Origin: Thermodesulfobacteriota bacterium
Lineage (GTDB): Bacteria; Desulfobacterota; WTBG01; JAGOGO01
NCBI GenBank assembly: GCA_026625185.1
Contig: CP113000.1
Span: forward strand, 1,245,622 to 1,277,621
Reading direction: 5' to 3'
DNA: 32,000 nucleotides
The notes under the pieces: model-generated
Told to the model about the DNA's origin: nothing
What the model saw: the letters and a program-made list of their open reading frames with translations, nothing else
Databases searched by the model: none
Made by a program: the position numbers and the translations under genes
In this document: piece after piece, positions 15,455 to 30,474 of the stretch
Numbering within the stretch: position 1 is the stretch's first letter
Layout of the letters: each line of letters opens with the position of its first letter

Positions 15455-16672
15455 ATGCTTGATTGCACTATCACCGTGGAATCCGGCGTTACCTGGATTA
15501 ATTTAAAAGGTCGTATTGACAGTATGACCTCACCGGAGATACAGCGGCAGATTAATGACCTCATTTTAGGGGGAGAAAGGCACTTAGTGGCTAACCTTGA
15601 GGAGATCAACTATATCAGCAGCGCAGGTTTACGCGTTTTTCTGGGAGCGCAGAAACAGCTCAAAAAGGTGGGAGGGGAGATTATTTTTTATAAAGTCTCG
15701 AGTTCAATATTTGACGTGTTTAAACTCGGGGCTTTTGATCAGATATTCCGTTTCGCGTCAACCAGAGAAGAAATTACCGGCGCACTTCATGCCGATAAAA
15801 CCTCTTTTCCTATTCGCTCAAAAGAGGTTGAGAAAATAGTATTTAACTATCTTGAAAAAAAAGCTGATCCTGGTTTCCTGAAGGTGGTGGGGTCTCAGGA
15901 AAATCTTGCTTGGGCAAAGTATATTGAGAAAGATGTGGTTACTATCAAATCAGAAGAACTCCAGTTCGGAACCGGTCTGGCTACTCTGGGTGATTGCTAC
16001 GGGGAATACAAGAATTTATTCGGCGAAGCAATGGTCATCAACCGAAACTTCTTTTTTTATCCGGCAGTTAAACGTCCGGCAGTTGATTTCATGCTTGCTG
16101 CCAACCAAGAATCCAGTCTTGAATACCGGTTTCTGCACGGCTTTGGATTCACTGGGTCCTATAAGTACGTTGTTTTATTTGAGAGTACGGAGGGCTTGGT
16201 AGAGCTGGAACGCCTGGTGAATGCTTTTTTTTCGATTTCCCAGGCGAATCTTTTGGGTTTTGTGATTCTCGGGGAAAGCAAAGGTCTCTGGGGAATGCAT
16301 TTAAAAAATAGCCCTATTTTTGAGAATCAACCTAAAAACGGCAAAGAGATTTTTGACCCGATAAACTTTGCTGACTGGGTAAACTTTCCTGTGGAGGCGG
16401 GAGATATCAACCGGATTATTGCTGCAACCGGGATTGCGATCAAGGAAGTGAGCAGGGAGCGCGGTGAAGTACAAAGCCTTTTGTCCAAGGGAGCCTGTTT
16501 TCATGTTCATGGGGCAGTATTTTCTCAGGAGCCGCTCAGTAAGAAAATAGAGCAGTTTGAAAACGAGCTTACCCGGGTTCTGACCGAACTTGAGGTTTAT
16601 AAGGTGCAGCATATACTCGGCAAGACCAGATTCAGCAGCGGAATGGTGGGGCTCGTTGAGCTTAGTTCATGA
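15455..16672 (+). CDS. STAS-domain (anti-sigma-factor-antagonist-like) protein fused to an uncharacterised domain of about 290 aa
   Basis: Residues 1 to about 110 are SpoIIAA/RsbV-like (INLKGRIDS...LEEINYISSAGLRVFLGAQKQLKKVGGEIIFYKVSSSIFDVFKLGAFDQIF). I recognise no motif in the rest. A strong RBS AGGAGG lies 6 nt upstream. It is the first gene of the ABC operon. Confidence 0.8.
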   Translation: MLDCTITVESGVTWINLKGRIDSMTSPEIQRQINDLILGGERHLVANLEEINYISSAGLRVFLGAQKQLKKVGGEIIFYKVSSSIFDVFKLGAFDQIFRFASTREEITGALHADKTSFPIRSKEVEKIVFNYLEKKADPGFLKVVGSQENLAWAKYIEKDVVTIKSEELQFGTGLATLGDCYGEYKNLFGEAMVINRNFFFYPAVKRPAVDFMLAANQESSLEYRFLHGFGFTGSYKYVVLFESTEGLVELERLVNAFFSISQANLLGFVILGESKGLWGMHLKNSPIFENQPKNGKEIFDPINFADWVNFPVEAGDINRIIAATGIAIKEVSRERGEVQSLLSKGACFHVHGAVFSQEPLSKKIEQFENELTRVLTELEVYKVQHILGKTRFSSGMVGLVELSS

Positions 16673-16703
16673 TCAAATAGTTATATCTCGTTAGGGGTTT
16701 TCA

Positions 16704-19700
16704 ATGGAACTCTGGGTTGGTGCATTAAGTCTCGGTTTGTTATACGCCTTCATGACCATGGGGGTTTTCATCACCTTTCGCATTCATAATTTCCCTGACA
16801 TTACCGTGGACGGAAGCTTTACCTCAGGGGCGGCAATAATGGCGTTACTTATTGTCACCGGATTTAACCCATTTCTGGCCCTGGGGGCTGCCTTTATCAT
16901 CGGAGCAGTCGCGGGTTGCGCTACCGCTTTGATCAATACCCGTTTAAATGTCAATGGCCTCCTGGCTGGTATTTTGGTCATGACCGGTCTTTATTCTATT
17001 AACCTGCACATCATGGGCCGGTCAAATATACCTCTTCTCAACCAGACAACGGTATTTACTTATCTCTCTGGGCTAAATCCAGGACTACAGGGAGAGATCT
17101 GGACTGGTATCGTCCTCAGTTTGGTTATGGTCCTTTTCTGGCTTGTTGTTTCTTTGTTTTTTAAAACTGATTTTGGGATTGCCATGCGGATTACCGGTAA
17201 TAATCCCACCATGGCGGCGGCAAATGGTGTTAATGTCGGCAGAATGACTATCTTTGGGGTAGCTTTGGCAAACGGTCTGGTTGGTGTTTCCGGCGGCTTG
17301 GTTGCCCAATATCAGGGATTTGCCGACATTGGAATGGGAATTGGAACGGTAGTTATCGGGCTTGCGGCAGTAATCATCGGCGAGTCCATCTTGAGGTCCC
17401 ACTCCATGTACGCAAAAGTGTTAAGCGTGCTCATTGGATCGGTGATTTTCCGGCTAATGATTGCCATTGCGCTTTTTGTGGGCATGAACCCTATTGACCT
17501 TAAACTTCTCACCGCAGGTTTTGTCCTTATTACCCTTATTATTTCTAAAACTGTTGCGGGCCGGGAAAAGAGGAGGGGGGAACTTTTCGGAAAGGTAGCC
17601 GGTTTTTTTCAGGGTAAACGAGTTGCTTACGGTTTTACTGCCATCATCATTATTATTGCGGTTGCATGGTTTGGGTATAAAAATTTTTCCCAAAGATTAA
17701 TGACACCACAAAAAATTAATAAAATCAAGGTGGTGCAGCTTACTGATAATGGACTTTTAAATATAACCCGGGACAGTTTCGTTAAAGAAATGGAAAAAAT
17801 CGGTTATCAGGATGGGCAGAATTGCACCATTAGCCTGGAAAATGCTCATGGTGATCTGCCCACCGTCAACTCCATCATTGATAAATTTCTTCAGGAGAAG
17901 GCGGACATTATCGTCACCATTTCCACCGGATGTACCCAGGCAGCAATCAATAAGATCAAGGACCGGCCAATAGTTTTTGCTACGGTTGCCAATCCGTTTA
18001 TTATTGGTGCCGGAAAATCAGAAACTGACCATGTAGCTAACGTTACTGGTGTGTACGGCTCGGTTCCCATGGACAAAACTATGGAGGTGGTCAGAAAAAT
18101 CCTGCCGGGAAAGCTCGCCATTGGAGCCATCTGGGATTCAAGCCAGGCAAATTCAGTCTTCAATGCAGAAAATCTTAAAAAAGCAGCTCAAGCTTGTGAT
18201 GGGGTGAGTTTTGCGGGAACAACCATTACCAGCTCAGCGGAAGTATATGAGGGCGCCGTATCTTTGGTACAAAAGGGGATTGGCGCTTTTGTTTTGCCGC
18301 CCGACAACATTGTTTATTCAGCTTTTGAGTCGGTGATAAAAGCCGCCAGAACCAAAAACATCCCCGTCTTCACCAGTGATGTAGAAAGGCTTGCTGATGG
18401 CGCTCTTGGTGTGCTGGGATATGATTATGCTTTAAGCGGTATTCAGGCTGCCCATCTGGTTGACCGGGTGCTAAAAGGGGAAAAACCACGGGATATCCCT
18501 TTTGAGCGGTATAGAAAGCTTACTTTTGGGCTTAACCTGGAGGTGGCAAAAACAATTGGTATATCCATATCACCTGAAGTTATTGCTCAAGCTACCATAG
18601 TTCTCGGAGGGAGAGAGACCAAAAAGCTTAAACCTAAAATAGGCCTTGTTCAGTTTGCCTTTGAACCTAATGTGGAGCTCTGCAAGCAAGGAATTCTTAA
18701 AGCCCTGGCCGAAAATGATTACCGAGATAAGGATAACATCGAAATCATCTACAAAAATGCTCAGGCTGACTTCTCTCTGATTAATTCCATTATTCAGGAT
18801 TTCCTAAGAAGGAAGGTTGATATCATTGTCCCCCTTTCAACCCCGTGTGTGCAGTCGGCAGTCCAGTTTGCTGCCGGGAAAAAAGAAACTAAAGTTGTTT
18901 TTACCTACATATTTGATCCTTACCGGATAGGAGCGGCAAAAACTCCGACCGACCATGTTCCCACTATAACGGGCGTGGCCTGCTTTCCGCCGATAGAGGG
19001 GATGCTGAATTTAATAAAAGAGATTTTCCCGGACCGGAAAAAGGTGGGCATTGTCTGGAATAGCTCGGAGGCAAACTCGGAAGCAGTGCTCCTTAAGATA
19101 CGTACCCAGGCGGCTAAGACAGGTCTTGAGGTTATCGAGGCAACCGTGACCAGCCCGGCGGAGGTTCTGGAGGCAGCACGGTCTTTGGTGAATAAAAAGG
19201 CTCAGGTTTTTTTAAATGGCGGAGACAATACCCTTAATGTGAGCTTTGACAGTTTTGTAAAGGTTGCGGACGAGAACAAAATCCCCGTTTTTTCAGTAGA
19301 TTCAGAATTTATTGAAAAAGGTTCTTTTGCGGTTCTGGGGCCTGATTATTTTCAAACCGGTTATGAAGGAGGAAACTATTTGGCCAAGGTATTGGGTGGT
19401 GAAGATATCGCAAACCTCCCTATCGGTCAGACCAAAAAAACCCTTTTTATGATCAACTTGGATATTGCCCGCAAATATGGGTTTGAGGTAGATAATGCTA
19501 TCGTGAAAAGGGCGCAGAAAGTCATTGACAGCAGCGCTAAGGTTATTGCCGCAGGCCCGCCGGTGCGGAAAAAGAGACTGGCGCTTTTTCTTTTTAGTGA
19601 ATACATTTCAATGCGTGAAACTGCCCAAGGGGTTACGGAAGAGCTTGAGCGAAGCGGCATTTTGCGGCAGCATAATATAACTATGGACACAAAAAATTCT

Positions 19701-20462
19701 CAGAACGATTTTTATTTGGCCCAGTCAATTGCTCAGGATATTGTGCGGCAAAAATATGACTATATCATCACGCTTTCTACTCCTGCACTTCAGGTAATGG
19801 CAAATGCCAATAAAAAGATTCCCCATATCTTTGGCGCGGTGACTGATCCTTACCGCATGGGGGTGGCAAAAAGCAGCACTGACCACCTTCCGAACGTGAC
19901 CGGGGTGGCGACTCTTCAACCGGTGGAGACAACCATCCGGGTTATGCGGGAACTTTTTCCTCAGGCAAAAAAAGTAGGAATTATCTGGAACCCCGCGGAA
20001 GCCTGCTCCGAAGCCTGTACCTACAAAGTCCGGGACGCGGTTAAAAAATATAGCTTTGCTCTACAGGAAATAAATGTTGACAGCACCAGTGAGGTGCTTG
20101 ATGCGTTGAAGTCCCTCTTAAACCGGAGAATTGATCTGTTTCTGACCTCCGGTGACAATACGGTCATTATGGCGCTTGAGTCGGTTGCAAAATTGCTGAA
20201 GGAGCATAAAATTCCTTATTTTACCAACGTTCCCTCGGATGTTGACCGCGGTGCGTTTGTTTCCATCGGTGCAGACTATAATGAGGTGGGTAAGGAAACA
20301 GCCCGCATGGCAGAAAGGGTAATAAGCGGAGAAAACCCCCAGGGCATTCCCATTAAAAATTATGTTCCCGAAAAAATGGCAGTTAATCTCTCCCTGGCGG
20401 GAGAGTACGGGATCAAGATTCCGGAGCCATTGCTTAAAAAAGCCGCCTATATCAAGAGGTAG
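16704..20462 (+). CDS. ABC transporter permease (COG4120-type) fused through an extra TM helix to three tandem PF04392/COG2984-type substrate-binding domains
   Basis: The N-terminal 300 aa or so are polytopic (FPDITVDGSF, LAGILVMTGLYSINLHIMG). A linker TM follows (VAYGFTAIIIIIAVAWFGY). Then come three units of about 300 aa sharing DIIVxxST, DPxxxGxxKxxTDHxxNVTGV, KVGIIWNxxEANS and IPVF landmarks. Confidence 0.85.
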   Translation: MELWVGALSLGLLYAFMTMGVFITFRIHNFPDITVDGSFTSGAAIMALLIVTGFNPFLALGAAFIIGAVAGCATALINTRLNVNGLLAGILVMTGLYSINLHIMGRSNIPLLNQTTVFTYLSGLNPGLQGEIWTGIVLSLVMVLFWLVVSLFFKTDFGIAMRITGNNPTMAAANGVNVGRMTIFGVALANGLVGVSGGLVAQYQGFADIGMGIGTVVIGLAAVIIGESILRSHSMYAKVLSVLIGSVIFRLMIAIALFVGMNPIDLKLLTAGFVLITLIISKTVAGREKRRGELFGKVAGFFQGKRVAYGFTAIIIIIAVAWFGYKNFSQRLMTPQKINKIKVVQLTDNGLLNITRDSFVKEMEKIGYQDGQNCTISLENAHGDLPTVNSIIDKFLQEKADIIVTISTGCTQAAINKIKDRPIVFATVANPFIIGAGKSETDHVANVTGVYGSVPMDKTMEVVRKILPGKLAIGAIWDSSQANSVFNAENLKKAAQACDGVSFAGTTITSSAEVYEGAVSLVQKGIGAFVLPPDNIVYSAFESVIKAARTKNIPVFTSDVERLADGALGVLGYDYALSGIQAAHLVDRVLKGEKPRDIPFERYRKLTFGLNLEVAKTIGISISPEVIAQATIVLGGRETKKLKPKIGLVQFAFEPNVELCKQGILKALAENDYRDKDNIEIIYKNAQADFSLINSIIQDFLRRKVDIIVPLSTPCVQSAVQFAAGKKETKVVFTYIFDPYRIGAAKTPTDHVPTITGVACFPPIEGMLNLIKEIFPDRKKVGIVWNSSEANSEAVLLKIRTQAAKTGLEVIEATVTSPAEVLEAARSLVNKKAQVFLNGGDNTLNVSFDSFVKVADENKIPVFSVDSEFIEKGSFAVLGPDYFQTGYEGGNYLAKVLGGEDIANLPIGQTKKTLFMINLDIARKYGFEVDNAIVKRAQKVIDSSAKVIAAGPPVRKKRLALFLFSEYISMRETAQGVTEELERSGILRQHNITMDTKNSQNDFYLAQSIAQDIVRQKYDYIITLSTPALQVMANANKKIPHIFGAVTDPYRMGVAKSSTDHLPNVTGVATLQPVETTIRVMRELFPQAKKVGIIWNPAEACSEACTYKVRDAVKKYSFALQEINVDSTSEVLDALKSLLNRRIDLFLTSGDNTVIMALESVAKLLKEHKIPYFTNVPSDVDRGAFVSIGADYNEVGKETARMAERVISGENPQGIPIKNYVPEKMAVNLSLAGEYGIKIPEPLLKKAAYIKR

Positions 20463-21295: not shown

Positions 21296-21706
21296 CTATT
21301 TTTTTATTTTCATGCAGAGTTTCAGAATATTCTTTCCTTCCTCGTGCCGGTAATCCAATTCATCCACCATCTTTCGGATCAGAAAAATCCCTAAGCCTCC
21401 GATTCTCCGCTCAAATAAATCACCGGATAAATTTGGACTATTTTCAGTTAAAGGATTGAAAGGATGGCCCCAGTCCTGGATGACAAAACAAAGTTTATCC
21501 TTATTCAGCCGGGTGCACTTTACTTCCACATCACCTTCTTGCGTGGGATAAGCATAATTAATAATATTGGTGAGAACCTCTTCCAGAACCAATTCTATCC
21601 TTGAAACCATTTCCTGGGTTATATGCCAGTCTTTTATTGTCTGAAGGACAAAAGAGCGAAAGGTTTCCAATGATTCCAATTTTGCCGGTAAACGTAAGTT
21701 ATCCAT
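21296..21706 (-). CDS. RsbW/SpoIIAB-like anti-sigma regulatory factor (HATPase_c serine kinase)
   Basis: 136 aa with N-box EEVLTNIINYAY, a DWGHPFNP segment and a GGLGIFLIRKMVDE G2-box. It is the last gene of the partner-switching operon. Confidence 0.85.
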   Translation of the reverse strand: MDNLRLPAKLESLETFRSFVLQTIKDWHITQEMVSRIELVLEEVLTNIINYAYPTQEGDVEVKCTRLNKDKLCFVIQDWGHPFNPLTENSPNLSGDLFERRIGGLGIFLIRKMVDELDYRHEEGKNILKLCMKIKK

Positions 21707-21752
21707 GCCTTAATCTTGAAGTCTAATTAAGCTGAGCTTTAAAAGTTAATAA

Positions 21753-23720
21753 TTAAGCATATTGAAAAAATCCTGGATAAGGAGAATCCTCTTTTATTCC
21801 TTTAAAGCGCAAAGCTAAAACCGTAATATCGTCCGCCTGGCTGACTTCTTTAGAAAAGCTTTTAACCGCATTAACCACATTATTTACGAGCTCTTCGGGA
21901 GAATTGTCGGGGTAGGTTCGGGTGGTCTCCAGTAGTCGTTGTTCGGAGTAGAGCTCTTTGTTTTCGTTTAGGGCTTCCGTTACTCCATCGGTATAAACCA
22001 GCAGCAAATCTCCTGAGCGAAGCTCAACTTTTTTCGTATCGTATTGGGATTCCTCAAAGACTCCCAGGAAGAATCCTTTCGGAAGTTCCAGCCATTCCGG
22101 TTCTTGACCGGCCCGAACAAGCAGCGGAGGATTATGGCCTGCATTGGAGTAAAGAAGTTCTCCGGATTTGAAATTCAAAATACCGCAAAAAACGGTGACG
22201 AACATATTTGATTCATTGTCTTGGCAGAGTTCCAAATTTACTCTTTTGAGGATGTCGGAAGGCTTAAGCTGAGGTTCAGCGGTTCCTTTCAGAAGAGTCT
22301 TTGTTACCGCCATAAAGAGAGCTGCCGGTATGCCTTTATCCGAGACATCACCCACAACAAAAAAAAGATGCTCTTCATCGAGGAGAAAGAAATCGTAAAG
22401 ATCACCGCCGATTTCTTTAGCGGGTTCAAGGGAAGCAAAAATTTCAAATTCAACCTTATCCGGAAACGGCGGAAAGTGCTTTGGAAGAAAACTCATCTGA
22501 ATGGTGCGGGCAATCTTGAGCTCGCTCTCAATCCGCTCCTTGGCTGCGGTGGTGGCGGCCAGGTTGGCAATGTATTCCTTAAGGGCAACTTTCATCTCCT
22601 TAAAAGATCGGGTTAGTTTTCCGATTTCATCATTTGCCCGCACCTCCGGTAGCTCAATATCCAGATTCCCCTTGACGATTTCCGAGGTTGATCGGGCAAG
22701 AGAACCGAGCGGCTTGGTAATAGTCCGGGAGAAGAAGGCAATGACGATACAGAGGAAGGTGAATCCAACCACGCCGATGAGAAGGACTTGTTTGCTTAAC
22801 CGGCTCACATCAGCAAATAGTTCTTCCTCCGGGAAGATCACTCCGAGGGACCAGCCGTTGGAAGGCAAGGGGGCATAATACATCCAGGATTTTTTTCCGG
22901 AGACAAAGTCTTGGAGAGGCACGAACCCCGGTTCGCCGGTGATCATTTTTCTCCCAACTTGGCGCAGGGTGGAGTCTTTTCTCGCTTCGGCAATACTGAA
23001 GATGCTTTCCTTCATGATCAATTGCTTTTCGGGGTGCGTGACCATGACCCCGTTTTGGGAGATCAAAAAAGCGTATCCGGTCTTATAGATTTTTACCGAA
23101 GATACAATATCCTTTAACCACATCAGGGAAATATCAGCAGTGACAACTCCCCGGAATTTATTTTTGCCGTCTATTTTTTTATAAAAGGGCACGGAATAAG
23201 TGGACATAATGATATTGCCGGCGCCTTCATCATAAAAGGGCTCGCTCCATACCGGGGAGTCAATTTCCTTGGGGATCTGAAACCAGTCGAGGTAAAAATA
23301 CCGGTAGGAGTCACTTCCCAAAAATGTTAAGATGATCTTTTCATTATTACGGTAATAATAAGGAGCAAAGTATAATAAAGTCGGATTAAAGGCGTACGGT
23401 TCAAAGGCAAAGGTTGAACCAAATATCTCCGGATTATTTGCAACCGCGCTTTGTACTAATTTCAAAAGATCTTGGCGTTGGTAGGGGTATTTTTCAATGA
23501 TGGAGGCTTGATTAAGCGGCACCTCTTCAACCGACCTGAGGACCGTCTCAATTTTATAAACGGTAGATAGGGTGAGGTTGCGGGCGTTTTCTTCAATGTT
23601 TTTTAGTAAAGTTTTTTTTGAATAATGGTAGTTATAAACGAAAGCCGCAACAAAGATGATGGTGGTGCTGGTTAAGATAAAGATAATGAGTTTAAAAGCG
23701 AGCCCTAAATTTTTAATCAT
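21753..23720 (-). CDS. membrane sensor phosphatase: TM, Cache-like periplasmic domain, TM, HAMP, PP2C (SpoIIE/RsbU family)
   Basis: Two TM helices flank about 280 aa containing YKTGYAFLISQNGVMVTHPE (Cache-like). HAMP segment is TKPLGSLARSTSEIVKGNLDIELP...IGKLTRSFKEM. PP2C motifs are ARTIQMSFLP, GGDLYDFF, VVGDVSDKGIPAALFMA, YTDGVTEA, DDITVLALRF. Confidence 0.88.
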   Translation of the reverse strand: MIKNLGLAFKLIIFILTSTTIIFVAAFVYNYHYSKKTLLKNIEENARNLTLSTVYKIETVLRSVEEVPLNQASIIEKYPYQRQDLLKLVQSAVANNPEIFGSTFAFEPYAFNPTLLYFAPYYYRNNEKIILTFLGSDSYRYFYLDWFQIPKEIDSPVWSEPFYDEGAGNIIMSTYSVPFYKKIDGKNKFRGVVTADISLMWLKDIVSSVKIYKTGYAFLISQNGVMVTHPEKQLIMKESIFSIAEARKDSTLRQVGRKMITGEPGFVPLQDFVSGKKSWMYYAPLPSNGWSLGVIFPEEELFADVSRLSKQVLLIGVVGFTFLCIVIAFFSRTITKPLGSLARSTSEIVKGNLDIELPEVRANDEIGKLTRSFKEMKVALKEYIANLAATTAAKERIESELKIARTIQMSFLPKHFPPFPDKVEFEIFASLEPAKEIGGDLYDFFLLDEEHLFFVVGDVSDKGIPAALFMAVTKTLLKGTAEPQLKPSDILKRVNLELCQDNESNMFVTVFCGILNFKSGELLYSNAGHNPPLLVRAGQEPEWLELPKGFFLGVFEESQYDTKKVELRSGDLLLVYTDGVTEALNENKELYSEQRLLETTRTYPDNSPEELVNNVVNAVKSFSKEVSQADDITVLALRFKGIKEDSPYPGFFQYA

Positions 23721-24696
23721 GGGATACGCAATCTATAAAAAAATCCGAGAAACTCGGGACAGCAGTGATTAAGCGATTTACCTTAAGCTCCTGAACAACG
23801 CGATTATAATCGCCGGCTTGAAGAGTTCCCAAAGGGACAGTATTACCGGACGGATTAATGATGTCTTTCATACGTTCCAGCATCCATTTCTGGTGAACCC
23901 GGTTCGTAGCGATATTGCCGTCCACTACATACTTCATAACAATATCGAGGGCCGGTTCGGGGTTATCGAAGGCGTACTCCCATCCTTCGAGGGATGCTTT
24001 CACAAAATCACGGCACAAGGCGGGATCATGGTCAAAGGTCTTTTTTAAACAGTAAATACCGTCTTCGGGAAAGTTTACGCTATATTCAGAAAGGAAAAAG
24101 GTCGTTAATTCAGTCGGATTTATACCGGAATTGATAATGGTATGGTACTCATTGTACCACATGGCGGACGCTACATCTACCCCGTTGCGTAAAAATAGGT
24201 TCAGGGTTGCGGACTGGGGAATAATGGTAACGTGAAGGTTGTGCTTTTTGAAAAATGCCTTGGGCTGGACCTGAAATTCACTTCCCCAGAGACCCACTTT
24301 CCTCCCGTTGATATCCCGGGGGGAGTATATGCCGCTTGACTTTTTCGCCACCAACATGAGGGATGATCGTTGGACAATTTGACCGATATTAACTATGGGG
24401 AGCCCCTGGGAGCGCTTTTGGATTCCGGTGGAGAGGAACATGGTTCCAAAATCCGCGCGTTTCTCCTTTAATAGCGCCGAAGGTGGGTAATCGGGGCCGC
24501 CACGTAAAATTTTTACCTCCAATCCGTGTTTCCGGTAAAATCCTTTCTCCTGGGCGACAAAGTAACCGGCAAACTGGGACTGAGGAACCCATTGGGGTAT
24601 AAAAGTCGTTTTTTTTAAACCCTTTTCGTTTGCCTGAGCCGCTATAGTTATCAATAAAAGCAAGGCAAAAAGAAAGAATATTTTAAATTTTAGCAC
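23713..24696 (-). CDS. periplasmic substrate-binding protein, NMT1/THI5-like (NitT/TauT-type SBP)
   Basis: Signal peptide MLKFKIFFLFALLLLITIAAQA and a QWVPQSQFAGYFVAQEKGFYRKHGLEVKI motif. Its stop overlaps the phosphatase start by 8 nt (ATGATTAA). Confidence 0.8.
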   Translation of the reverse strand: MLKFKIFFLFALLLLITIAAQANEKGLKKTTFIPQWVPQSQFAGYFVAQEKGFYRKHGLEVKILRGGPDYPPSALLKEKRADFGTMFLSTGIQKRSQGLPIVNIGQIVQRSSLMLVAKKSSGIYSPRDINGRKVGLWGSEFQVQPKAFFKKHNLHVTIIPQSATLNLFLRNGVDVASAMWYNEYHTIINSGINPTELTTFFLSEYSVNFPEDGIYCLKKTFDHDPALCRDFVKASLEGWEYAFDNPEPALDIVMKYVVDGNIATNRVHQKWMLERMKDIINPSGNTVPLGTLQAGDYNRVVQELKVNRLITAVPSFSDFFIDCVSHD

Positions 24697-24728
24697 CCAG
24701 CATCCTTCTGAAGCTTTTCAATTTTTTT

Positions 24729-25061
24729 TTAAATCTGTGACCGAGCAGATTCCACGGATTCAAAGATGGGGATAATAGAACGGAATCCGGAAATTTCGAA
24801 AACCTCCTTTACCATACCTTTAAGTCCGGCAATCAGAAGCTTTCCATCTTTTTCTTTAAGTTTTTTGGTTATCGTGAGGATGCTGCGAAGGCCGGAGCTG
24901 CTGATATAATCAAGCGCAGCAAAGTCAAGTATTAAAGCGTTATTTCCTTCAGCAATTAATGCGGCCATTTCTTTTTCAAACTCCGGTGAGGAAACAGCAT
25001 CCATCCTCCCTTTTAATGAAACCACTGCTGCCTCTTGTTCCCGTTTTTTTTCTATCTCCAT
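24729..25061 (-). CDS. STAS-domain anti-sigma-factor antagonist (RsbV/SpoIIAA-like)
   Basis: 110 aa: VSLKGRMDAVSSPEFEKEM...LDFAALDYISSSGLRSILTITKKLKEKDGKLLIAGLKGMVKEVFEISGF. The serine at the phospho-acceptor position is retained. Confidence 0.88.
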   Translation of the reverse strand: MEIEKKREQEAAVVSLKGRMDAVSSPEFEKEMAALIAEGNNALILDFAALDYISSSGLRSILTITKKLKEKDGKLLIAGLKGMVKEVFEISGFRSIIPIFESVESARSQI

Positions 25062-25160
25062 AATAGGCTTTCTAATTTAATGTGATTAGCGTTTTTTCGG
25101 AATTTATGCTGCTTTTTTATTTCTTGGTAACGATCCAAAAAATTCTTTTTTTGTCGATAT

Positions 25161-25189
25161 TTTTTTAACCTATTGGCGCGGGAAAGTCA
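25161..25189 (-). promoter_or_regulatory. candidate sigma70 promoter for the STAS-SBP-phosphatase-kinase operon
   Basis: On the minus strand: TTGACT (25189-25184), a 17-nt spacer, then TAAAAA (25166-25161), about 100 nt upstream of ATG 25061. Confidence 0.3.
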
Positions 25190-25199
25190 ATCCTATTGA

Positions 25200-25285
25200 T
25201 TTTCCTTATTAACCGAAACCCATAAGCGGAGTCCCTCCCAGGTCTTCTTTTCATTGGGTGTTTTTTCAAAAAGTCCTTTCTTCCC
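25200..25285 (+). repeat. intergenic repeat family, copy 1
   Basis: TTATTAAC (25205-25212), 12 nt, GCGGAGTCCCTCCCAGGTC (25225-25243), then TTTTTTCAAAAAGTCCT (to about 25276). It is collinear with copies 2 and 3. Confidence 0.6.
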
Positions 25286-25326
25286 TTAATGGTTATTCCT
25301 ATCATCCTTTCGTCTAATTTTAATTC

Positions 25327-25425
25327 CCCCTAATCACTCCATCACTAACCACTAATCCCTGCGCCTTCAGGGCGCACGCAATCCCTTCGGCCCTGCCAGG
25401 CCGGAGTGAGGAAGTGATAAAGGGG
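25327..25425. ncRNA. candidate structured RNA or element (GC-rich, three-way-junction-like); identity and strand unknown
   Basis: Outer stem ATCACTCCATCACT (25333-25346) pairs with AGTGAGGAAGTGAT (25405-25418) at 12 of 14 positions. It is flanked by CCCC/GGGG and encloses hairpins TGCGCC-TTCAG-GGCGCA (25360-25376) and CGGCC-CTGCCA-GGCCG (25388-25403). Confidence 0.25.
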
Positions 25426-25590
25426 AAAAGGGGTCAGAAGAAAAGTTTTACGAATTTTTCTTCCGCAGTTTTCCAATTATTGTATTAATCATCTTCAATA
25501 TCTCGTTGCTTACACCATTTCTTTCAGCAAATGTTTTCGATGAGATAAAATTTATATCTTTACATTTTCCCAGCCAATTTTGAACTTCAG

Positions 25591-26098
25591 GTGTTGATCG
25601 GTAGTTACTCACTTATAGAGTTTGATTTTGGCACAAAAACTATTGATGCCATAAGCCAATGGTTGCCAGGTTCGCCCCCGCTTTTTTTTGTTAATAAAAA
25701 TTCTCCTATGGATCGTTTACGATTTAGCGTTGACCATGAGTTAGGTCATATTGTAATGCATAAAGTTTGTGGGCTGGATATAAAAAAAAATGGGAAAACA
25801 AGCAGACGATTTCGCTTAAGAAATTCTTATGCCCGAAGACGCTATATCTCGTTTCTTAAATAATATTACCCTTCCGCAACTTGCTAATTTAAAATCATAT
25901 TGGAAAGTATTCATGGCAGCTCTTTTGCATCGTTCATATGATCTAAAAAAAATTACAACAAGGCAATATCAATACTTATGGATGCAAATGGGGAAAGCTG
26001 GCTATCGAACAAAGGAACCGCCTGAATTTGATATTCCCAAAGAAATACCTTCTTTATTAAAAGATCTAATTGAAACTTATCGCCAAAAATATGTTTGA
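25591..26098 (+). pseudogene. ImmA/IrrE-family zinc metallopeptidase (DUF955), N-terminally truncated, frameshifted, with an internal stop
   Basis: Contains RFSVDHELGHIVMH (the HExxH motif). The frame changes at an A9 run (25782-25790). The shifted frame reads MGKQADDFA-TAA(25817-25819)-EILMPEDAISRF, matching the family's ANxFAxxxLMP segment. The remainder continues as track ORF 25829-26098. Confidence 0.65.
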
Positions 26099-26146
26099 CA
26101 TGCTTGAGCGGCTCAAATGTATTATAATTTTGCTCGGATTCATTAG

Positions 26147-26230
26147 ACTTTGAGAATAACTCCGGCAATGACGGCGGAGGAGACGGATCATGTTTGGTCT
26201 TTGGAAGAAATGGTAGGTTTATTGGATTAG
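26147..26230 (+). mobile_element. IS transposase C-terminal tail remnant (about 27 codons)
   Basis: Translation TLRITPAMTAEETDHVWSLEEMVGLLD* matches the recurrent TPAMAAGxTDHVWSxEEL tail that I recall from a class of IS transposases (IS1/IS1595-like; family uncertain). A stop lies immediately upstream, so only the tail survives. It overlaps the pyrF stop by 4 nt. Confidence 0.45.
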
Positions 26231-26979
26231 GATAAAGCTTGTTCGATTTCTTTTGCTATTTTTTTAACAGCCTCGATGGGATCGGGGGCATTCTTGATTG
26301 GTCTGCCAACGACAATATAATCGGCCCCATCTTTTATAGCATCATAGGGGGTGGTTATTCTTTTTTGATCATCCGCATTTACCACACTCCATTTTGGACG
26401 GATCGCAGGAACAACGACAATAAAATCTTTTCCAAATTCTTGTTTTACCGCCTTCACTTCCTTGCCAGAACATACTACTCCTGAACATCCAGCTAATTTA
26501 GCTAATCTTGCCCTATGGAGAACGAGTTGAGTTGGGTCTTGTAAATCTTCTCTAATACCAATTTCTTTTAAATCTTCTTTTGATAAACTTGTTAAGACTG
26601 TTATTCCTAATATCTTTGTTCCATTTTTAACGCTATCGACAACAGCTTTTAACAATCCCTTTCCTTCTTCACAATGAACAGTTATAAATGTAGCATGGTG
26701 GGCATTGGCGGCTTTTTGTGCGCCACTAACTGTTTCGGGAATATCGTGAAACTTCATATCTAAAAAAATTTTTGTAGGAGTTTCTTCGGCAATAGCTCTT
26801 AGTATCTTGGGACCTTCTTTTACGAATAATTCTAAACCAACTTTAAATAACCCAATGTAATTCTTAAGAAGTCTTACATAATGAGTGGCTTCATCAAGAG
26901 TAGGTAGATCTAATGGAAATATTATATATTCGTGAGGTTTTTTAGAAGAACCACTTTTTAAGTCCATTTTTTTGGCCAT
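26227..26979 (-). CDS. pyrF: orotidine 5'-phosphate decarboxylase
   Basis: IFPLDLP, FKVGLELF, FLDMKFHDIPETV, ITVLTS, VVGRPI motifs. It is visibly more AT-rich, with more AGA/TTA codons, than the core genes in this window. Confidence 0.9.
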   Translation of the reverse strand: MAKKMDLKSGSSKKPHEYIIFPLDLPTLDEATHYVRLLKNYIGLFKVGLELFVKEGPKILRAIAEETPTKIFLDMKFHDIPETVSGAQKAANAHHATFITVHCEEGKGLLKAVVDSVKNGTKILGITVLTSLSKEDLKEIGIREDLQDPTQLVLHRARLAKLAGCSGVVCSGKEVKAVKQEFGKDFIVVVPAIRPKWSVVNADDQKRITTPYDAIKDGADYIVVGRPIKNAPDPIEAVKKIAKEIEQALS

Positions 26980-27227
26980 GAAATGGTTTGTTAATATATT
27001 AATTCCCCAATAATTAATTTGTCAAAAAAATCTTCTATATAGATAAGAAAAAATTAAAATATCTATCTATAGTATTTTAAAAGAATTTTTAATCTTAAAA
27101 TATCATTTATTATAAATTTACCATTTTTAAACATAAAAAAGAAACGATTACCTAACAAAAAGTTCATACCAGTTCAGGTTTTTCTCAGAAAAAACACAAT
27201 TTATTTTTAAAAATGAGTCACTACCAA

Positions 27228-27340
27228 TTTTCTTTAATAACCATATCCACCTAAGCGGAGTCCCCCTCAGGTCGGAAAATTCTCCCAAGCAATCACTTGG
27301 AAAAAAATTCTTATTAAGAACCAAAAAGTCCTATCTTGGT
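27228..27340 (+). repeat. intergenic repeat family, copy 2
   Basis: TTAATAAC (27234-27241), 13 nt, GCGGAGTCCCCCTCAGGTCGG (27255-27275), TTCTCCCAA, AAAAAAATTCTT, CAAAAAGTCCTATCTT (to about 27337). Confidence 0.6.
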
Positions 27341-27383
27341 CTTATAAATTGAAGGCTAATTTTTTAACCTCTCTCCTCCCAAA

Positions 27384-27420
27384 AAGGCCAGGTTTTCATT
27401 GCGTGGCCTTTGTTTTTTTG
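27384..27420. terminator. bidirectional rho-independent terminator-like hairpin
   Basis: AAGGCCA (27384-27390) / TGGCCTT (27404-27410), a perfect 7-bp stem with a 13-nt loop. An A-run lies upstream (CCCAAAAA) and TTTGTTTTTTT downstream. Confidence 0.5.
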
Positions 27421-27488
27421 GGGTGAGAGAAAGCAAAACTTATTTTAAAAATACTTTACTATTACCTTTTCGTGGTTATTATTAAAAA

Positions 27489-27556
27489 ATGGCCCTGATC
27501 AGGCTCCTTTTCCTTCATCTCTCCTCCTTTTGAAGGGCCTGATCGTTTAGGGCCAT
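27489..27556. repeat. long imperfect inverted repeat (68-nt extended hairpin)
   Basis: ATGGCCCTGATCAGGC (27489-27504) pairs with GCCTGATC-gttt-AGGGCCAT (27537-27556). An inner stem is CCTTCA (27512-27517) / TGAAGG (27531-27536). Confidence 0.55.
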
Positions 27557-27909
27557 TCGCTTTTCTTAGCATAAATATGAGGACAAAACAAGTCATTATT
27601 ATATCCTCCTAAATTTCCAACTGCCTAAATTTCTTTATTTCTCTGCTCATTTTTAAGTACGGTTAATTCAAAAATAACATTCTCCACCAAGGGAGAGGAA
27701 CGATAAAAAAGTGTTATTAATTAAAAATTTACCTTTTTTCTAAGGCTTTTGTTCACTGGTAGTTTTTTTAAAGCTTATTTTTTCGTAAACCATTTTAGCG
27801 CTCCTGCGTCTTATATTTGAGAAAAGCAAAATAAATTAACCCATAAGAGATGCGTATCTGTACCTATTAAAAACTAATCCTCTAATAATTAAAAAAGGGT
27901 GTGATCATC

Positions 27910-28299
27910 ATGAGAAAAATATTAATTATTTTAATAGCCTTAAGCCTGGCAATACCCCTTTTAACCGCCACTCCCGCAAAGGCCGGTCATTGGAGTTTTG
28001 GCTTTTACTGGCCCGGATTCACAGTAGGGATAGGTGTTCCCCCGCCATATTATTATCCTGCACCACCTCCTCCAGGCTATTATTATCCTCCCGCCTACTA
28101 TTATGGGGAATACTGTAGGCCTGGGTATGGGTATTATGGTGGTTGCCGTCCCAGGGAATATTATGGCGGACCCAGGTATGGGAACAATGGCGACTACCAT
28201 AGGGAATATAACGGGGGACCCCGTGGGGAATATTATGGTAGAAACAATGGCAATGAGGATAATGGTGGGGAAAACTATGGTGGTGGATATCGGAGATAG
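27910..28299 (+). CDS. secreted Gly/Tyr/Pro-rich low-complexity protein (hypothetical)
   Basis: Start moved to ATG 27910, giving a classical signal peptide MRKILIILIALSLAIPLLTATPAKA. The mature part is PPPYYYPAPPPPGYYYPPAYYYGEYCRPGYGYYGGCRPREYYGGPRYG...GGGYRR. A terminator follows. Confidence 0.6.
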   Translation: MRKILIILIALSLAIPLLTATPAKAGHWSFGFYWPGFTVGIGVPPPYYYPAPPPPGYYYPPAYYYGEYCRPGYGYYGGCRPREYYGGPRYGNNGDYHREYNGGPRGEYYGRNNGNEDNGGENYGGGYRR

Positions 28300-28341
28300 C
28301 TGGGTTTACCACTAAATAGTATGAGAAGATGATTTTTTAAC

Positions 28342-28385
28342 CGGCTAACGGTAATTGGAATACCTGGTTAGCCGTTTATTTTTAA
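28342..28385 (+). terminator. rho-independent terminator after the Gly/Tyr-rich protein gene
   Basis: CGGCTAAC (28342-28349) / GTTAGCCG (28367-28374), a perfect 8-bp stem followed by TTTATTTTTAATTTTTT. Confidence 0.5.
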
Positions 28386-28387
28386 TT

Positions 28388-28510
28388 TTTTCTTATTAAC
28401 TTATACGCCTGAGCGGAGTCACTCTCGGGTCGGTTTTTCTCCAACAAGTTTTTTCAGAAAAGAATTCTTTTTTTAAATAGAATAGTACTTGCGATAAAAA
28501 AGATCCTCTA
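28388..28510 (+). repeat. intergenic repeat family, copy 3
   Basis: TTATTAAC (28393-28400), 12 nt, GCGGAGTCACTCTCGGGTCGG (28413-28433), TTCTCCAAC, AAAAGAATTCTT, AAAAAAGATCCTCT (to about 28508). Confidence 0.6.
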
Positions 28511-28589
28511 ATTTAGATCCAAAATTACCCTGAATTAACAAACTAATGAGAAATATCTCTTTAGCCAGAAGGGATTCCGGGAAAGAAAA

Positions 28590-29810
28590 TCAACGCATAT
28601 TCCCGGTGTGACCGAGCGAATATCGGCCCGGAAGAGGCCAGTAGGCTAATCCGTGGGGATGGTCACCTACCGAGATGCGTGCGATCAGTTTGCCCGAGTT
28701 GGTATCAAAGCAATAGACCTCATTGTCATAACGACCACCCAGCCAGAGCTGGCTTCCCTCAATATTCAGGTTACCCATGTCCGGACTTCCGCCCCCCGGC
28801 ACCAGCCATTGTGCGATGACTTTCCGGGTGGCAAAGTCGATGACCGCAATACTGCCCTGCCCATGCCGCCCTGCATTCAAATGGCTCCATCCCCGGTTGC
28901 TCACGTAAAGCTTCTTGCCGTCCCGGCTGGGCAAAAGTCCATGCGCGCCTTTCCCGGTGGGAATGAAACCCACTATTTTGAAACGATCCCCGTCAATCAA
29001 ATGGACGCCATTGGCCATGAGGTCGGCAATGTAGAAGGTGGTCCCGTCTGCTGACAGCCGGACATCCTGCGGCATGCTGTTGATACCTAACTCGAGCGAG
29101 TCGGTCATCTGATACTTTACCATGTCGATCTTGATCAATTTTCCGGCAAACTCACAGGAGGCAACAGCATAGCGACCGTCGATGGAAAAATCCAGGTGAT
29201 TGACGCCCCGGCAGGCCACGGGAACAGAAAATTTGAGAGCCATGGTCTCAGGATCCCGAAAGTCAAGCTTATGCCTGGCTTCGGCTACGACGATAGCGTA
29301 TTTGCCGTCCGGGGTAAAATACAAGTTGTACGGGTCATCAACATGCACGTTTGGCCCGGGCTTCCCGGTTAAGGGATCTATGGGTGTAAGACTATTGCCC
29401 TCGTTATTCAATACCCATAACCGTTTTTTGTCCCAGGAGGGTATAATGTGCTGGGGGCCTTTGCCCGTGGGATAGTGGTCAATCACCTTAAAAGTCTTTG
29501 GATCGATAACGGATACGGTGCCATCCCACTCGTTCGGCACATACACCCGGTGAGGAATGTTATTCAAGGCAGGCTCTAATTTATCCGCGGCAGCCTCGGA
29601 ATAAATATTGGTGGGGTCAATCACGGGAGGCATACCCGGTATGGTATGTATTTCCTGTTGGCCTCGGTTGTGGTTGCCTTGGCTTGAGAGATGGGAGGAA
29701 TTGGCCCGGTCCGGAGGTTTACTAGTTTTGGGTGAGGATGCACTATAGCTATAAAAAAACAGGGTAGCTATAATAATGGCAAAGAGAATTAATAATCTTT
29801 GTATAGTCAT
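28590..29810 (-). CDS. YVTN-family beta-propeller repeat protein with N-terminal membrane anchor or signal sequence
   Basis: Repeated units of about 40 aa of the type VYVPNEWDGTVSVIDPKTFKVI, LWVLNNEGNSLTPIDPLTGK, FYIADLMANGVHLIDGDRFKIVGFIPTGKGAHGL, LYVSNRGW...GSIAVIDFATRKVI. N-terminal hydrophobic helix LLILFAIIIATLFF. RBS GGAGAAGG. Confidence 0.8.
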   Translation of the reverse strand: MTIQRLLILFAIIIATLFFYSYSASSPKTSKPPDRANSSHLSSQGNHNRGQQEIHTIPGMPPVIDPTNIYSEAAADKLEPALNNIPHRVYVPNEWDGTVSVIDPKTFKVIDHYPTGKGPQHIIPSWDKKRLWVLNNEGNSLTPIDPLTGKPGPNVHVDDPYNLYFTPDGKYAIVVAEARHKLDFRDPETMALKFSVPVACRGVNHLDFSIDGRYAVASCEFAGKLIKIDMVKYQMTDSLELGINSMPQDVRLSADGTTFYIADLMANGVHLIDGDRFKIVGFIPTGKGAHGLLPSRDGKKLYVSNRGWSHLNAGRHGQGSIAVIDFATRKVIAQWLVPGGGSPDMGNLNIEGSQLWLGGRYDNEVYCFDTNSGKLIARISVGDHPHGLAYWPLPGRYSLGHTGNMR

Positions 29811-29994
29811 AACCTTCTCCCAAAAAACTGATTTTTATCTGTCAACGAACGTTGGTTGTATTTTTCCCTTGCGGAGTCCTGAATACAAGTAAAAGTCGGA
29901 GCCCGGAGACCTAACGCTACGAAAAGCTATCAAAACAGACTGAATTTTCAAACTTGAACCTACCCTTAAGCTAACAGCAAGGTCTCGTTACAGA

Positions 29995-30474
29995 TTAGGG
30001 CTTGATTTCAATTGGTATCCCGTCGTTGACCAGAGACCAGATTTCTTCAATTTCCCGGTTGGTTACTGCGATACACCCCTGAGTCCAGTTCATCTTCCGA
30101 TAAAAAAAACCGAGAAAGCCCAGCCCGTTTCTAATGCCGTGGAGCATGATGTCCCCGCCGGGGTTCACTCCCGCCTGGTTTGCCCGCTGAATATCTGCCT
30201 GGGAGGGGTAGGAAATGTGAAGTGAGCGATGATAGCAACTTTGATAATTGCGCCCGTCGATAACGTAAAGACCTTCCGGTGTTTTCCCGTCGTCTTTCTG
30301 TAACTTATGCCCCTCAGGGTATGGACCAAGCGCAACCTGATAGGTACGTATAATATTACCTTCTGAAAGCAGAAAAAGCTTCCGCTTGGCTTTTTCAACT
30401 ACAACAAGGTCAATCTGCCTGGCGGGTGGTGATTGCTTCCTTGAATTTAAAACCCTTTTCTTAGCCAGCATCAC
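29995..30474 (-). CDS. L,D-transpeptidase-fold protein (YkuD domain), YafK-like
   Basis: VVVEKAKRKLFLL...YQVALG...GHKLQKDDGKTPEGLYVI...ISYPSQAD...GGDIMLHG...NWTQGCIAVTN, with the catalytic His/Cys context of the YkuD fold. Confidence 0.85.
   Translation of the reverse strand: MMLAKKRVLNSRKQSPPARQIDLVVVEKAKRKLFLLSEGNIIRTYQVALGPYPEGHKLQKDDGKTPEGLYVIDGRNYQSCYHRSLHISYPSQADIQRANQAGVNPGGDIMLHGIRNGLGFLGFFYRKMNWTQGCIAVTNREIEEIWSLVNDGIPIEIKP

Follow-up and report, generated by a model that had tools for sequence, protein, structure and literature searches.

Small RNAs that are encoded as sibling genes—for example OmrA/OmrB, Qrr1-5, LhrC1-5, the csRNAs, and NgncR_162/163—are intergenic paralogues that are often clustered on the same strand, have promoter-proximal and 5′ sequences in common, and end at their own terminators (PMC4211561). 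These known siblings are alike over most of their length, adopt defined structures, and have been demonstrated to be expressed. Another set of small RNAs, including MicA and RybB, depends on sigma-E, an extracytoplasmic function (ECF) sigma factor, and ECF promoters combine an AAC in the -35 element with CGT or TC in the -10 element, the two being separated by a spacer of 16-17 bp (PMC3426412, PMC6767563). Reused or “mobile” promoters place homologous upstream sequences beside unrelated genes, both within and between genomes, with high overall similarity directly upstream of the genes (PMC3575422). Finally, the REP/BIME, ERIC, BOX, and MITE repeats are short, non-coding, intergenic, multi-copy, and modular; they occur at rearrangement points and are variably present. 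Here we analyze a module of 85-90 nt that occurs three times, in intergenic DNA, within a 32,000-nucleotide stretch of the ORM2a genome (assembly GCA_026625185.1, contig CP113000.1, positions 1,245,622 to 1,277,621 of the forward strand), hereafter called the “window”.

ORM2a acts as the key benzene fermenter in a methanogenic consortium that has been studied well. To our knowledge, its lineage (GTDB class BSN033, order UBA8473) has no cultured member. The genome of this member of Desulfobacterota, which lives in a methanogenic benzene-degrading consortium and is placed by GTDB in BSN033 and UBA8473, is closed, with a size of 3.30 Mb and a G+C content of 44% (PMC10190668). The PyrF protein of the window has an identical counterpart on contig JARDUI010000493.1 of the DGG-1A metagenome, and in the DGG-B culture the DNA coverage of ORM2a exceeds 900x. 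The three window copies of the element are designated c1, c2, and c3, and the sequence downstream of each copy is called its “tail”. L-numbers denote the loci that were compared with the window; L001-L003 are from the same strain, and L032 is a further 20.5 kb of ORM2a. The family evidence as a whole comprises 19 copies from at least five genomes or populations. The element is a real, hitherto undescribed, lineage-restricted non-coding family and is ordinary in kind: either sibling small RNAs or a promoter/operator cassette.

Three copies in the ORM2a window

Four occurrences of the 8-mer GCGGAGTC are present in the window, at 25226, 27255, 28413, and 29871, and every one of them is on the + strand. 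By chance, 0.44 would be expected, and none of 100 shuffled sequences reaches four, in agreement with the initial annotation, which had counted four plus-strand occurrences with fewer than one expected. At 25226, 27255, and 28413, the similarity extends over a common register of about 53 nt (at least 53), with identities of 60-75%. All three copies match GCGGAGTCNCNCNCNGGTC exactly, and TAAC lies 12, 13, and 12 nt ahead of GCGG in c1, c2, and c3, respectively; the proposed conservation of the spacing between TTAWTAAC and the core is thereby confirmed.

The same copies were recovered with an independent profile, made from 14 copies of other genomes with no window sequence included. It matches 28386-28472 (E 2.7e-20), 27227-27316 (E 1.7e-15), and 25199-25280 (E 7.2e-13), all on the + strand, and nothing further in the 32 kb, which bears out the three same-orientation intergenic copies of about 100 bp that had been described. 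Copy c1 (25199-25282) contains TAAC at 25210-25213, GCGGAGTC at 25226-25233, and a degenerate third block at 25262-25281. In c2 (27227-27316), TAAC at 27238-27241 is followed by the 13-nt spacer, GCGGAGTC at 27255-27262, and the third block at about 27295-27310. Copy c3 (28386-28472) carries TAAC at 28397-28400, GCGGAGTC at 28413-28420, and AAAAGAATTCTTTTTTT at 28453-28469.

As the initial annotation had stated, the copies are all intergenic and are flanked by unrelated genes. c1 is bordered by the start of a minus-strand STAS gene and by a split ImmA/IrrE-like pseudogene, and c2 by the start of the minus-strand pyrF and by a gene for a Gly/Tyr-rich secreted protein. c3 is situated between convergent genes, with the terminator of the Gly/Tyr-rich protein gene on one side and the 3′ end of a minus-strand beta-propeller gene on the other; despite this setting, it has the best profile score of the window copies.

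The fourth GCGGAGTC site, at 29871-29879 on the + strand, had been listed as a partial fourth copy. It was found by the exact 8-mer search only, it has just the 9-mer GCGGAGTCC in common with the family, its flanks are dissimilar and fail to align, and all of the family models, including the profiles, are silent. It does not belong to the family; a single additional chance 8-mer within 32 kb is unremarkable.

Could the similarity of c1, c2, and c3 likewise be a chance resemblance of AT-rich intergenic DNA, the objection that the initial annotation had raised to its own proposal? The AT-rich flanks alone point in this direction. The shuffles, the exact match in all three copies, the E values of down to 2.7e-20 with the independent profile, and the recurrence in other genomes refute this explanation, to which we assign practically no weight. 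The repeat is a true family under selection, not AT-rich noise.

The family in related genomes

Outside ORM2a, the module is found in a related metagenome-assembled genome (MAG) and in metagenome contigs, about 11 in number, from wetland or sediment. Species-representative genomes and metagenomes were scanned with the exact pattern TAAC-N12/13-GCGGAGTCNCNCNCNGGTC. Among the former, it matched three separate contigs of the MAG “uncultured delta proteobacterium MFD00709.bin.2.91” (41-43% G+C), as well as three G+C-rich genomes with unrelated flanks, in which the matches are chance-like. The metagenome scan yielded 11 further low-G+C contigs with the element and seven chance matches in G+C-rich contigs. 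A profile built on these matches added copies outside the pattern, at L023 1231-1316, L009 164-250, and L012 3902-3981, and weaker or partial copies were found in L027, L033, and L035. The orthologous pyrF loci of relatives with 70-74% protein identity have neither the element nor synteny, and the family therefore seems to be confined to a narrow clade.

Wherever a locus bears several copies, the profile hits are on one strand: three in the window, and two each in L023, L012, and L009. c3 is orthologous to the copies in L004, L012 (copy a), and L027, each of which follows the terminator of the same Gly/Tyr-rich protein gene. In the relatives an OmpA-like gene comes next, and in ORM2a this gene is replaced after c3. 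Retention of the orthologous tail by c3 was considered and rejected, as 183 of 500 shuffles score as high in the alignment.

Invariant blocks amid variable spacers

The copies follow the consensus TTTTCCTTATTAAC-N12/13-GCGGAGTCCCTCTCGGGTCGG-variable-AAAAAGAATTCTTTT. In the alignment, block 1, TTTTCCTTATTAAC(C), is followed by a variable spacer, and block 2, CCTGAGCGGAGTCCCTCTCGGGTCGG, by about 22 variable nucleotides, which fall into three subtypes beginning with GGAAAAATTCC, GGTTTTTTTCATTGGG, and GAAATATCTTCTCGGG. Block 3 has the form TTTTTC..AAAAAGAATTCTTTT, and AAAAAGTCCT in c1 is a degenerate version of the AAAAGAATTC block. The two most invariant blocks are TAAC and GAGTC, and the spacer between them varies in sequence and tolerates a 1-nt change in length. 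Of the ordered blocks in the initial annotation, AAAAGAATTCTT is present family-wide, while TTCTCC-AA and AAAAAG(A)TCCT are not kept in the copies of other genomes. The invariant columns stand amid diverged, effectively randomised spacers, and therefore indicate selection at each locus rather than recent copying.

On the right, the likeness between paralogues ends directly after block 3, and in BLAST comparisons the tails are unrelated, except among orthologues and in the L009a/b pair; a loose search for a right-end motif common to the copies returned noise. On the left, a long form (c1, L005, L009a, L015, L018, L021, and L023a/b) carries about 45 extra nucleotides, TTTTTAACCGTTAAAAGGGAAAGAGTCAACACTTTTAAT. 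In c1, this extension (25160-25198, minus strand) contains TTGACT (25190-25185), N17, and TAAAAA (25167-25162), a putative sigma70-like promoter directed toward the STAS gene, whose start codon at 25061 is about 100 nt away. In the long form generally, the minus strand of this block reads TTGACT-N17-TAAAAA and would act as a sigma70-like promoter toward the left gene.

The module does not match any described RNA family. In the window, Rfam 15 gave zero hits at the gathering threshold, and the initial annotation likewise could not assign the repeat to a known element; a relaxed search of 24900-30100 returned two chance-level hits, both off the element. Among 15 related loci, only a tRNA-Pro was detected by Rfam, and ARAGORN called nothing at any copy, finding only unrelated tRNAs. 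The upstream regions of real tRNA genes do not resemble the element. A coding function is rejected by stops in all frames, the 1-nt indel between the blocks, and a conservation period of 2 rather than 3. Pairing between the 5′ and 3′ ends of the units is rejected as well: in the duplex test, only one of 21 copies beats 95% of the shuffles.

The promoter-like geometry of the element

The distance between the two most invariant blocks resembles that in ECF promoters. The element reads AAC-N17-GTC (N18 in c2, L009a, and L016), in which AAC is invariant and the early part of the spacer is variable. A motif of the classical ECF promoter pattern, GTAAACC-N15-CGTC, lies at 27785-27810 on the + strand, before the Gly/Tyr-rich gene at 27901-28299, and has the same AAC-N17-GTC spacing. 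In the form TGTAAAC(C/T)-N15-(G)CGTC(T/A)TATA, it occurs 45-75 nt before the start codons of three kinds of genes: the Gly/Tyr-rich gene, the OmpA-like gene in six loci, and a 195-aa gene in L012. Beyond the window, the motif is found in L004, L012 (at 3019 and 4155), L027, L033, L034, and L035. We found 11 plausible TGTAAACC-N15-CGTC sites in 189 kb, as compared to about one expected by chance, again with a spacing equal to that of the element. This distribution suggests that a small envelope regulon of an ECF sigma factor may lie behind the motif.

An ECF-type promoter is the sole promoter model with both recognition elements inside the universally conserved part of the element. Promoters of sigma54, sigma28, sigmaB, RpoS, and sigma70, and boxes of CtrA, IHF, CodY, Rex, and OmpR, were rejected, as no candidate among them agrees with the consensus in sequence and spacing together. 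Like the ECF-dependent MicA and RybB genes, the element has AAC, a spacer of 16-17 nt, and a -10-like block with GTC; its conservation reaches into the putative 5′ end of the RNA, and envelope-type genes in the neighborhood bear clear ECF-type promoters with the same spacing. It differs from them in that the -10-like block is AGTC, not CGTC or TC(A/T)AA, the -35-like block is TTAAC, not GGAAC or GTAAAC, and a linked sigma/anti-sigma operon is missing.

We tentatively favor one reading, with a confidence that stays short of an even chance: each copy may be the head of a small, stand-alone + strand transcription unit, and the copies may constitute a sibling small-RNA gene family with a common promoter and 5′ segment. 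The promoter would be recognized by an alternative sigma factor through the -35-like TTATTAAC and, 16-17 nt further, the -10-like (G)AGTC, which gives the AAC-N17-GTC pattern. The first 15-25 transcribed bases (CUCGGGUCGG...) would be retained as the common 5′ segment, and the short AU-rich palindrome AAAAAGAAUUCUUUUU would complete the module of about 90 bp. Downstream, the copies would differ in their bodies, each of them unrelated to the others and closed by a terminator that lies 100-320 nt from the element start. Transcription is predicted to start near 25239-25242 in c1, 27268-27271 in c2, and 28426-28429 in c3, with an ECF-type sigma factor as the candidate for its initiation.

Gene context and terminators

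The placement of the copies is independent of the orientation of their neighbors. The flanking genes have no functional relation to one another and are found in all four arrangements, which would be expected if the element were an independent gene rather than a cis element bound to a single neighbor. A minus-strand gene starts 165-276 nt to the left of c1 (STAS), c2 (pyrF), L009a (Tpx), L018, L020, and L023b; a plus-strand gene starts 277-365 nt to the right of L004/L012a/L027 (OmpA-like with a Gly/Tyr-rich tail), L012b, L014, and c1 (the pseudogene); and the 3′ end of a convergent gene faces c3, L005, L009a, and L023a/b.

Terminators follow many of the copies. In a scan for hairpins with T-runs, strong + strand terminators were found at +130 to +320 from the element start after c2, L009a, L009b, L016, L012b, and L013/14, and weaker ones after c1, L005, and L012a. 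The terminator of c2 (27383-27420; -15.4 kcal/mol, z -2.8), about 70 nt past the copy, is strong and bidirectional, with an A-run before and a T-run after it, and would end a + strand transcript of about 150 nt. The terminator at 28342-28385 (+ strand; -14.9 kcal/mol, z -2.6, followed by a T-run) belongs to the Gly/Tyr-rich protein gene and directly precedes c3. Both terminators had been named in the initial annotation, and the transcript of about 170 nt that it derived from c2 is compatible with our results, except that the bidirectional terminator could instead serve a minus-strand open reading frame (ORF). It lies 42 nt past the stop of a 44-aa minus-strand ORF of the public annotation (27462-27596) and may belong to that ORF rather than to a c2 transcript.

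The tail of c1 (25318-25475, + strand) comprises a long hairpin at 25318-25430 (-48.1 kcal/mol, z -3.2), which has no Rfam match and is as stable in none of 200 shuffles, and then an AU-rich hairpin with a T-run at about 25434-25475 (T-run at +268, -10 kcal/mol). L009a and L018 have different genes on their left and yet share about 400 nt in conserved form, all the way from the left block to the terminator, which looks like a self-contained unit.

The stand-alone-unit reading would account for the independence from neighbor orientation, for the well-kept c3 with no gene to serve, for the abrupt loss of likeness past block 3, for the terminators downstream, and for the clustering on one strand. 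The known sibling small-RNA clusters also consist of same-strand copies (PMC4211561). The resemblance to them includes the intergenic position of the paralogues, the common promoter-proximal and 5′ sequence, and the terminators that follow many copies; the difference is that the element copies have only about 90 nt in common, with unrelated bodies and no conserved fold.

Several results weigh against stand-alone units. RNAalifold found no consensus structure for the whole family, for its largest subtype, or for the minus strand. One plausible hairpin, CCUGAG[ CGGAGUCCCU ]CUCGGG, is 85-90% paired with a single covarying pair; its pair counts are no better than those of shuffles, its covariation is not significant, and it is broken in L009b and L012b. 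The lack of a conserved structure is something that this reading does not explain. The scan detected no terminator after L004/L027, L015, and L023a, and the bidirectional terminators of c2, L009a, and L009b might serve convergent genes instead. The -10-like block is AGTC and not the canonical CGTC, and among the six copies found without the search pattern, GAGTC is kept in two and the following CTCGGGTCGG in four. A consensus scan revealed no + strand sigma70 promoter in the copies, and the short-form copies have no -35 in common. No sigma factor gene is present in the window or the related loci, and no copy was found upstream of one.

Regulator-binding DNA as a possible alternative

The conservation is at the level of the primary sequence, because the family has neither a consensus fold nor significant covariation, and the strand-asymmetry test gave no clear strand preference for the hairpin. 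This would speak for a DNA-only cassette, in which regulator-binding sites—for a response regulator on phased direct repeats or for dimeric repressors on palindromes—modulate adjacent promoters on either side without a transcript of their own. The sequence offers both kinds of sites. ACGCC, GAGTC, and GGGTC follow one another at 11-bp steps, and dyads are formed by GGA(G/C)TCC, GGAAA-N-TTTCC, and AAAAGAATTCTTTT, as well as by TTTTAAC-N-GTTAAAA in the long form. In two diverged copies, GGAGTCC is replaced by its reverse complement GGACTCC, a change that a dimeric protein bound to double-stranded DNA would tolerate but that disrupts the RNA hairpin. Moreover, the long-form copies abut the sigma70-like promoter toward the left gene (STAS, Tpx, and others), and stress or envelope genes are common neighbors: the STAS partner-switch operon, Tpx, lipocalin, Slp-like, OmpA-like, BON, and Gly/Tyr-rich secreted proteins.

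We hold the DNA-only cassette to be the main rival, somewhat less likely than the stand-alone units. Against it, neither c3 nor L023a is flanked by a gene start, and yet both are among the best-conserved copies; the nearest gene start is 165 to more than 700 nt away; and no copy is linked to a regulator gene. In addition, the OmpA-like gene of L033 is preceded by its ECF-type promoter and has no element beside it. The element was therefore rejected as the promoter of the OmpA-like gene that starts about 280 nt downstream, which has a conserved ECF-type promoter to itself. The element can also be distinguished from the “mobile” promoters (PMC3575422): like them, it is a homologous sequence beside unrelated genes within and between genomes, but a number of copies lack a gene downstream, and in L012 and L033 the nearest gene carries a promoter of its own.

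Possible mobility and recombination

Is the element a selfish or recombination-prone intergenic repeat of the REP, BOX, ERIC, or MITE type, without a dedicated host function and with many decaying copies? The initial annotation had left three options open—a MITE/REP-like element, a promoter-operator cassette, and a small-RNA family—and the first of them fits worst, while the other two fit best and can be merged. The distribution of the copies does have traits of such a repeat. Partial copies lie at rearrangement breakpoints, where L005 retains profile positions 1-54, L033 positions 34-86, and L035 positions 14-87. Presence varies among close relatives, as L031, with a neighboring protein 91% identical, does not have the unit carried by L009. 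In the roughly 57 kb of ORM2a sampled, all three copies are inside one 3.3-kb cluster, as compared to none in the other ~54 kb, which includes zero in the 20.5 kb of L032. The build is modular, with a long form, a short form, and three spacer subtypes, and L016 represents the circular-permutation junction of a 4-kb block that lies between the two L009 copies.

We nevertheless regard the selfish-repeat explanation as unlikely. No terminal inverted repeats, inverted partner copies, or target-site duplications were found around the copies, by repeat search and from the profile hits. The identity of 60-75%, with invariant columns amid randomised spacers, the low copy number, and the retention of at least one copy at an orthologous position in four genomes are unlike those of a spreading repeat; the unrelated tails make the ends of the element undefinable; no match was obtained in viral contigs or plasmids; and a transposase or RAYT-like gene was found in none of the loci. 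The MITE option in particular is rejected by the lack of inverted arms bounding the copies, the single strand per locus, the identity level, the missing right end, and the mere three copies in ~57 kb. For REP/BIME, the sole hairpin has no significant covariation and is broken in several copies, and inverted pairs are absent. Thus, the element shares with the REP/BIME, ERIC, BOX, and MITE classes the traits listed at the outset, and differs from them in having no terminal inverted repeats or strong palindrome, few and diverged copies with invariant blocks, no right end, and no transposase. An integron attC site was rejected as well, as there is no overall inverted repeat or consensus fold and no integrase in the window or the related loci.

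Four copies have a peculiar tail. In L009a and L009b (L009 164-480 and 4235-4560), L016 (596-900), and L018 (1778-2060), a unit of about 200 nt is followed by a perfect tRNA-Ala(GGC)-like 3′ half and then by a strong terminator. This half extends from the anticodon loop to the discriminator base, CUGGCAC-UCAAG-GGGUC-ACGGG-UUCGAUC-CCCGU-CAGCUCC-A, and over 44 nt shows 79.5% identity to two tRNA-Ala genes matched in each E. coli genome. The units have no 5′ half, ARAGORN calls nothing in them, and Rfam, even with the limit relaxed to E<=10, reports neither a tRNA nor a tmRNA. The window copies and all other copies have no tRNA fragment.

Displaced tRNA fragments of this type are usually found where an integrated island ends (PMC4383910). 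Accordingly, the element could be an arm of a site-specific recombination (att) site, with blocks that bind an integrase and accessory factors, and the copies could be relics of integrated elements; the 3′ half at about +200 nt in the four units and the resemblance of L016 to the junction of an excised 4-kb block would agree with this idea. The genes of the 4-kb block, however, encode DUF1722, lipocalin, Tpx, and a 127-aa protein, and no integrase, excisionase, or mobile-element gene is found in or beside it. There is no intact tRNA-Ala gene nearby in the sequence examined, the remaining copies—including the three of the window—have no tRNA fragment, and relic arms would be expected to decay rather than to retain invariant blocks. 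We judge an att arm to be very improbable.

The four units may be viewed in another way. In their minimum-energy folds, the GGAG(U/C) of the element pairs with the 3′ strand of the acceptor, by 5 bp only. The element would then be a portable “head”, made up of a promoter together with a 5′ RNA segment, which recombination has fused to varied RNA bodies; one of these ends in the tRNA-Ala 3′ half, where GGAG(U/C) would close an acceptor-like helix next to an intact T-arm, in a topology like that of tmRNA. This elaboration is improbable in our estimation. The likeness to displaced tRNA fragments and to tmRNA topology is limited to L009a/b, L016, and L018, and consists of the 3′ half at the unit end and its possible pairing with GGAG(U/C); unlike displaced tRNA fragments, the units have no integrase or intact tRNA nearby, and unlike tmRNA, they have a closing helix of 5 bp without G3-U70. 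A divergent tmRNA was rejected for the L009 and L018 units, because they have A3-U70 in place of G3-U70 and a closing helix of 5 bp only, and lack both a plausible tag frame and an Rfam signal.

Neighboring genes in the window

Several features around the copies are described here in their own right. To the left of c1, a partner-switching set is encoded on the minus strand at 21296-25061, comprising a STAS anti-sigma antagonist (24729-25061), an NMT1-like protein, a dCache-HAMP-SpoIIE (PP2C) phosphatase, and a HATPase_c_2 anti-sigma-type kinase. To the right of c1, two overlapping short ORFs at 25591-26098, one of which matches Peptidase_M78 (ImmA/IrrE-like), probably represent a frameshifted pseudogene and possibly a relic of a mobile element.

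Between c2 and c3, the Gly/Tyr-rich gene (27901-28299 or 28034-28315, as the gene callers differ on the frame) encodes a small secreted protein with a signal peptide and a Gly/Tyr/Pro-rich repetitive body, with no Pfam match. Its orthologues in L004, L012, and L027 adjoin a gene for an OmpA-like Pal paralogue with a similar Gly/Tyr-rich tail. On the minus strand at 27670-27778, about 700 nt upstream of pyrF, Rfam reports a sub-threshold PyrR binding site (24.7 bits versus a gathering threshold of 54, E 3.2), which is probably a chance match. Further away, at 15455-20462, a 405-aa protein with an N-terminal STAS domain is encoded directly upstream of a 1252-aa fusion of an ABC permease and a substrate-binding domain, followed by an ABC ATPase, which is an unusual transporter architecture.

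Implications

If the copies are decaying repeats, then the element would still mark recombination hot spots in these genomes. If the portable-head reading is true, uncultured Desulfobacterota would possess modular small-RNA genes of a class not seen before, tRNA mimics among them; the copies with the tRNA half, if expressed, would yield an unusual kind of tRNA-like RNA. In any case, the element is an easily recognised non-coding module, and thus a concrete handle on regulation in the ORM2a lineage. It could delimit a family of small RNAs or a regulon that is governed by an alternative sigma factor or another regulator and tied to envelope and stress genes.

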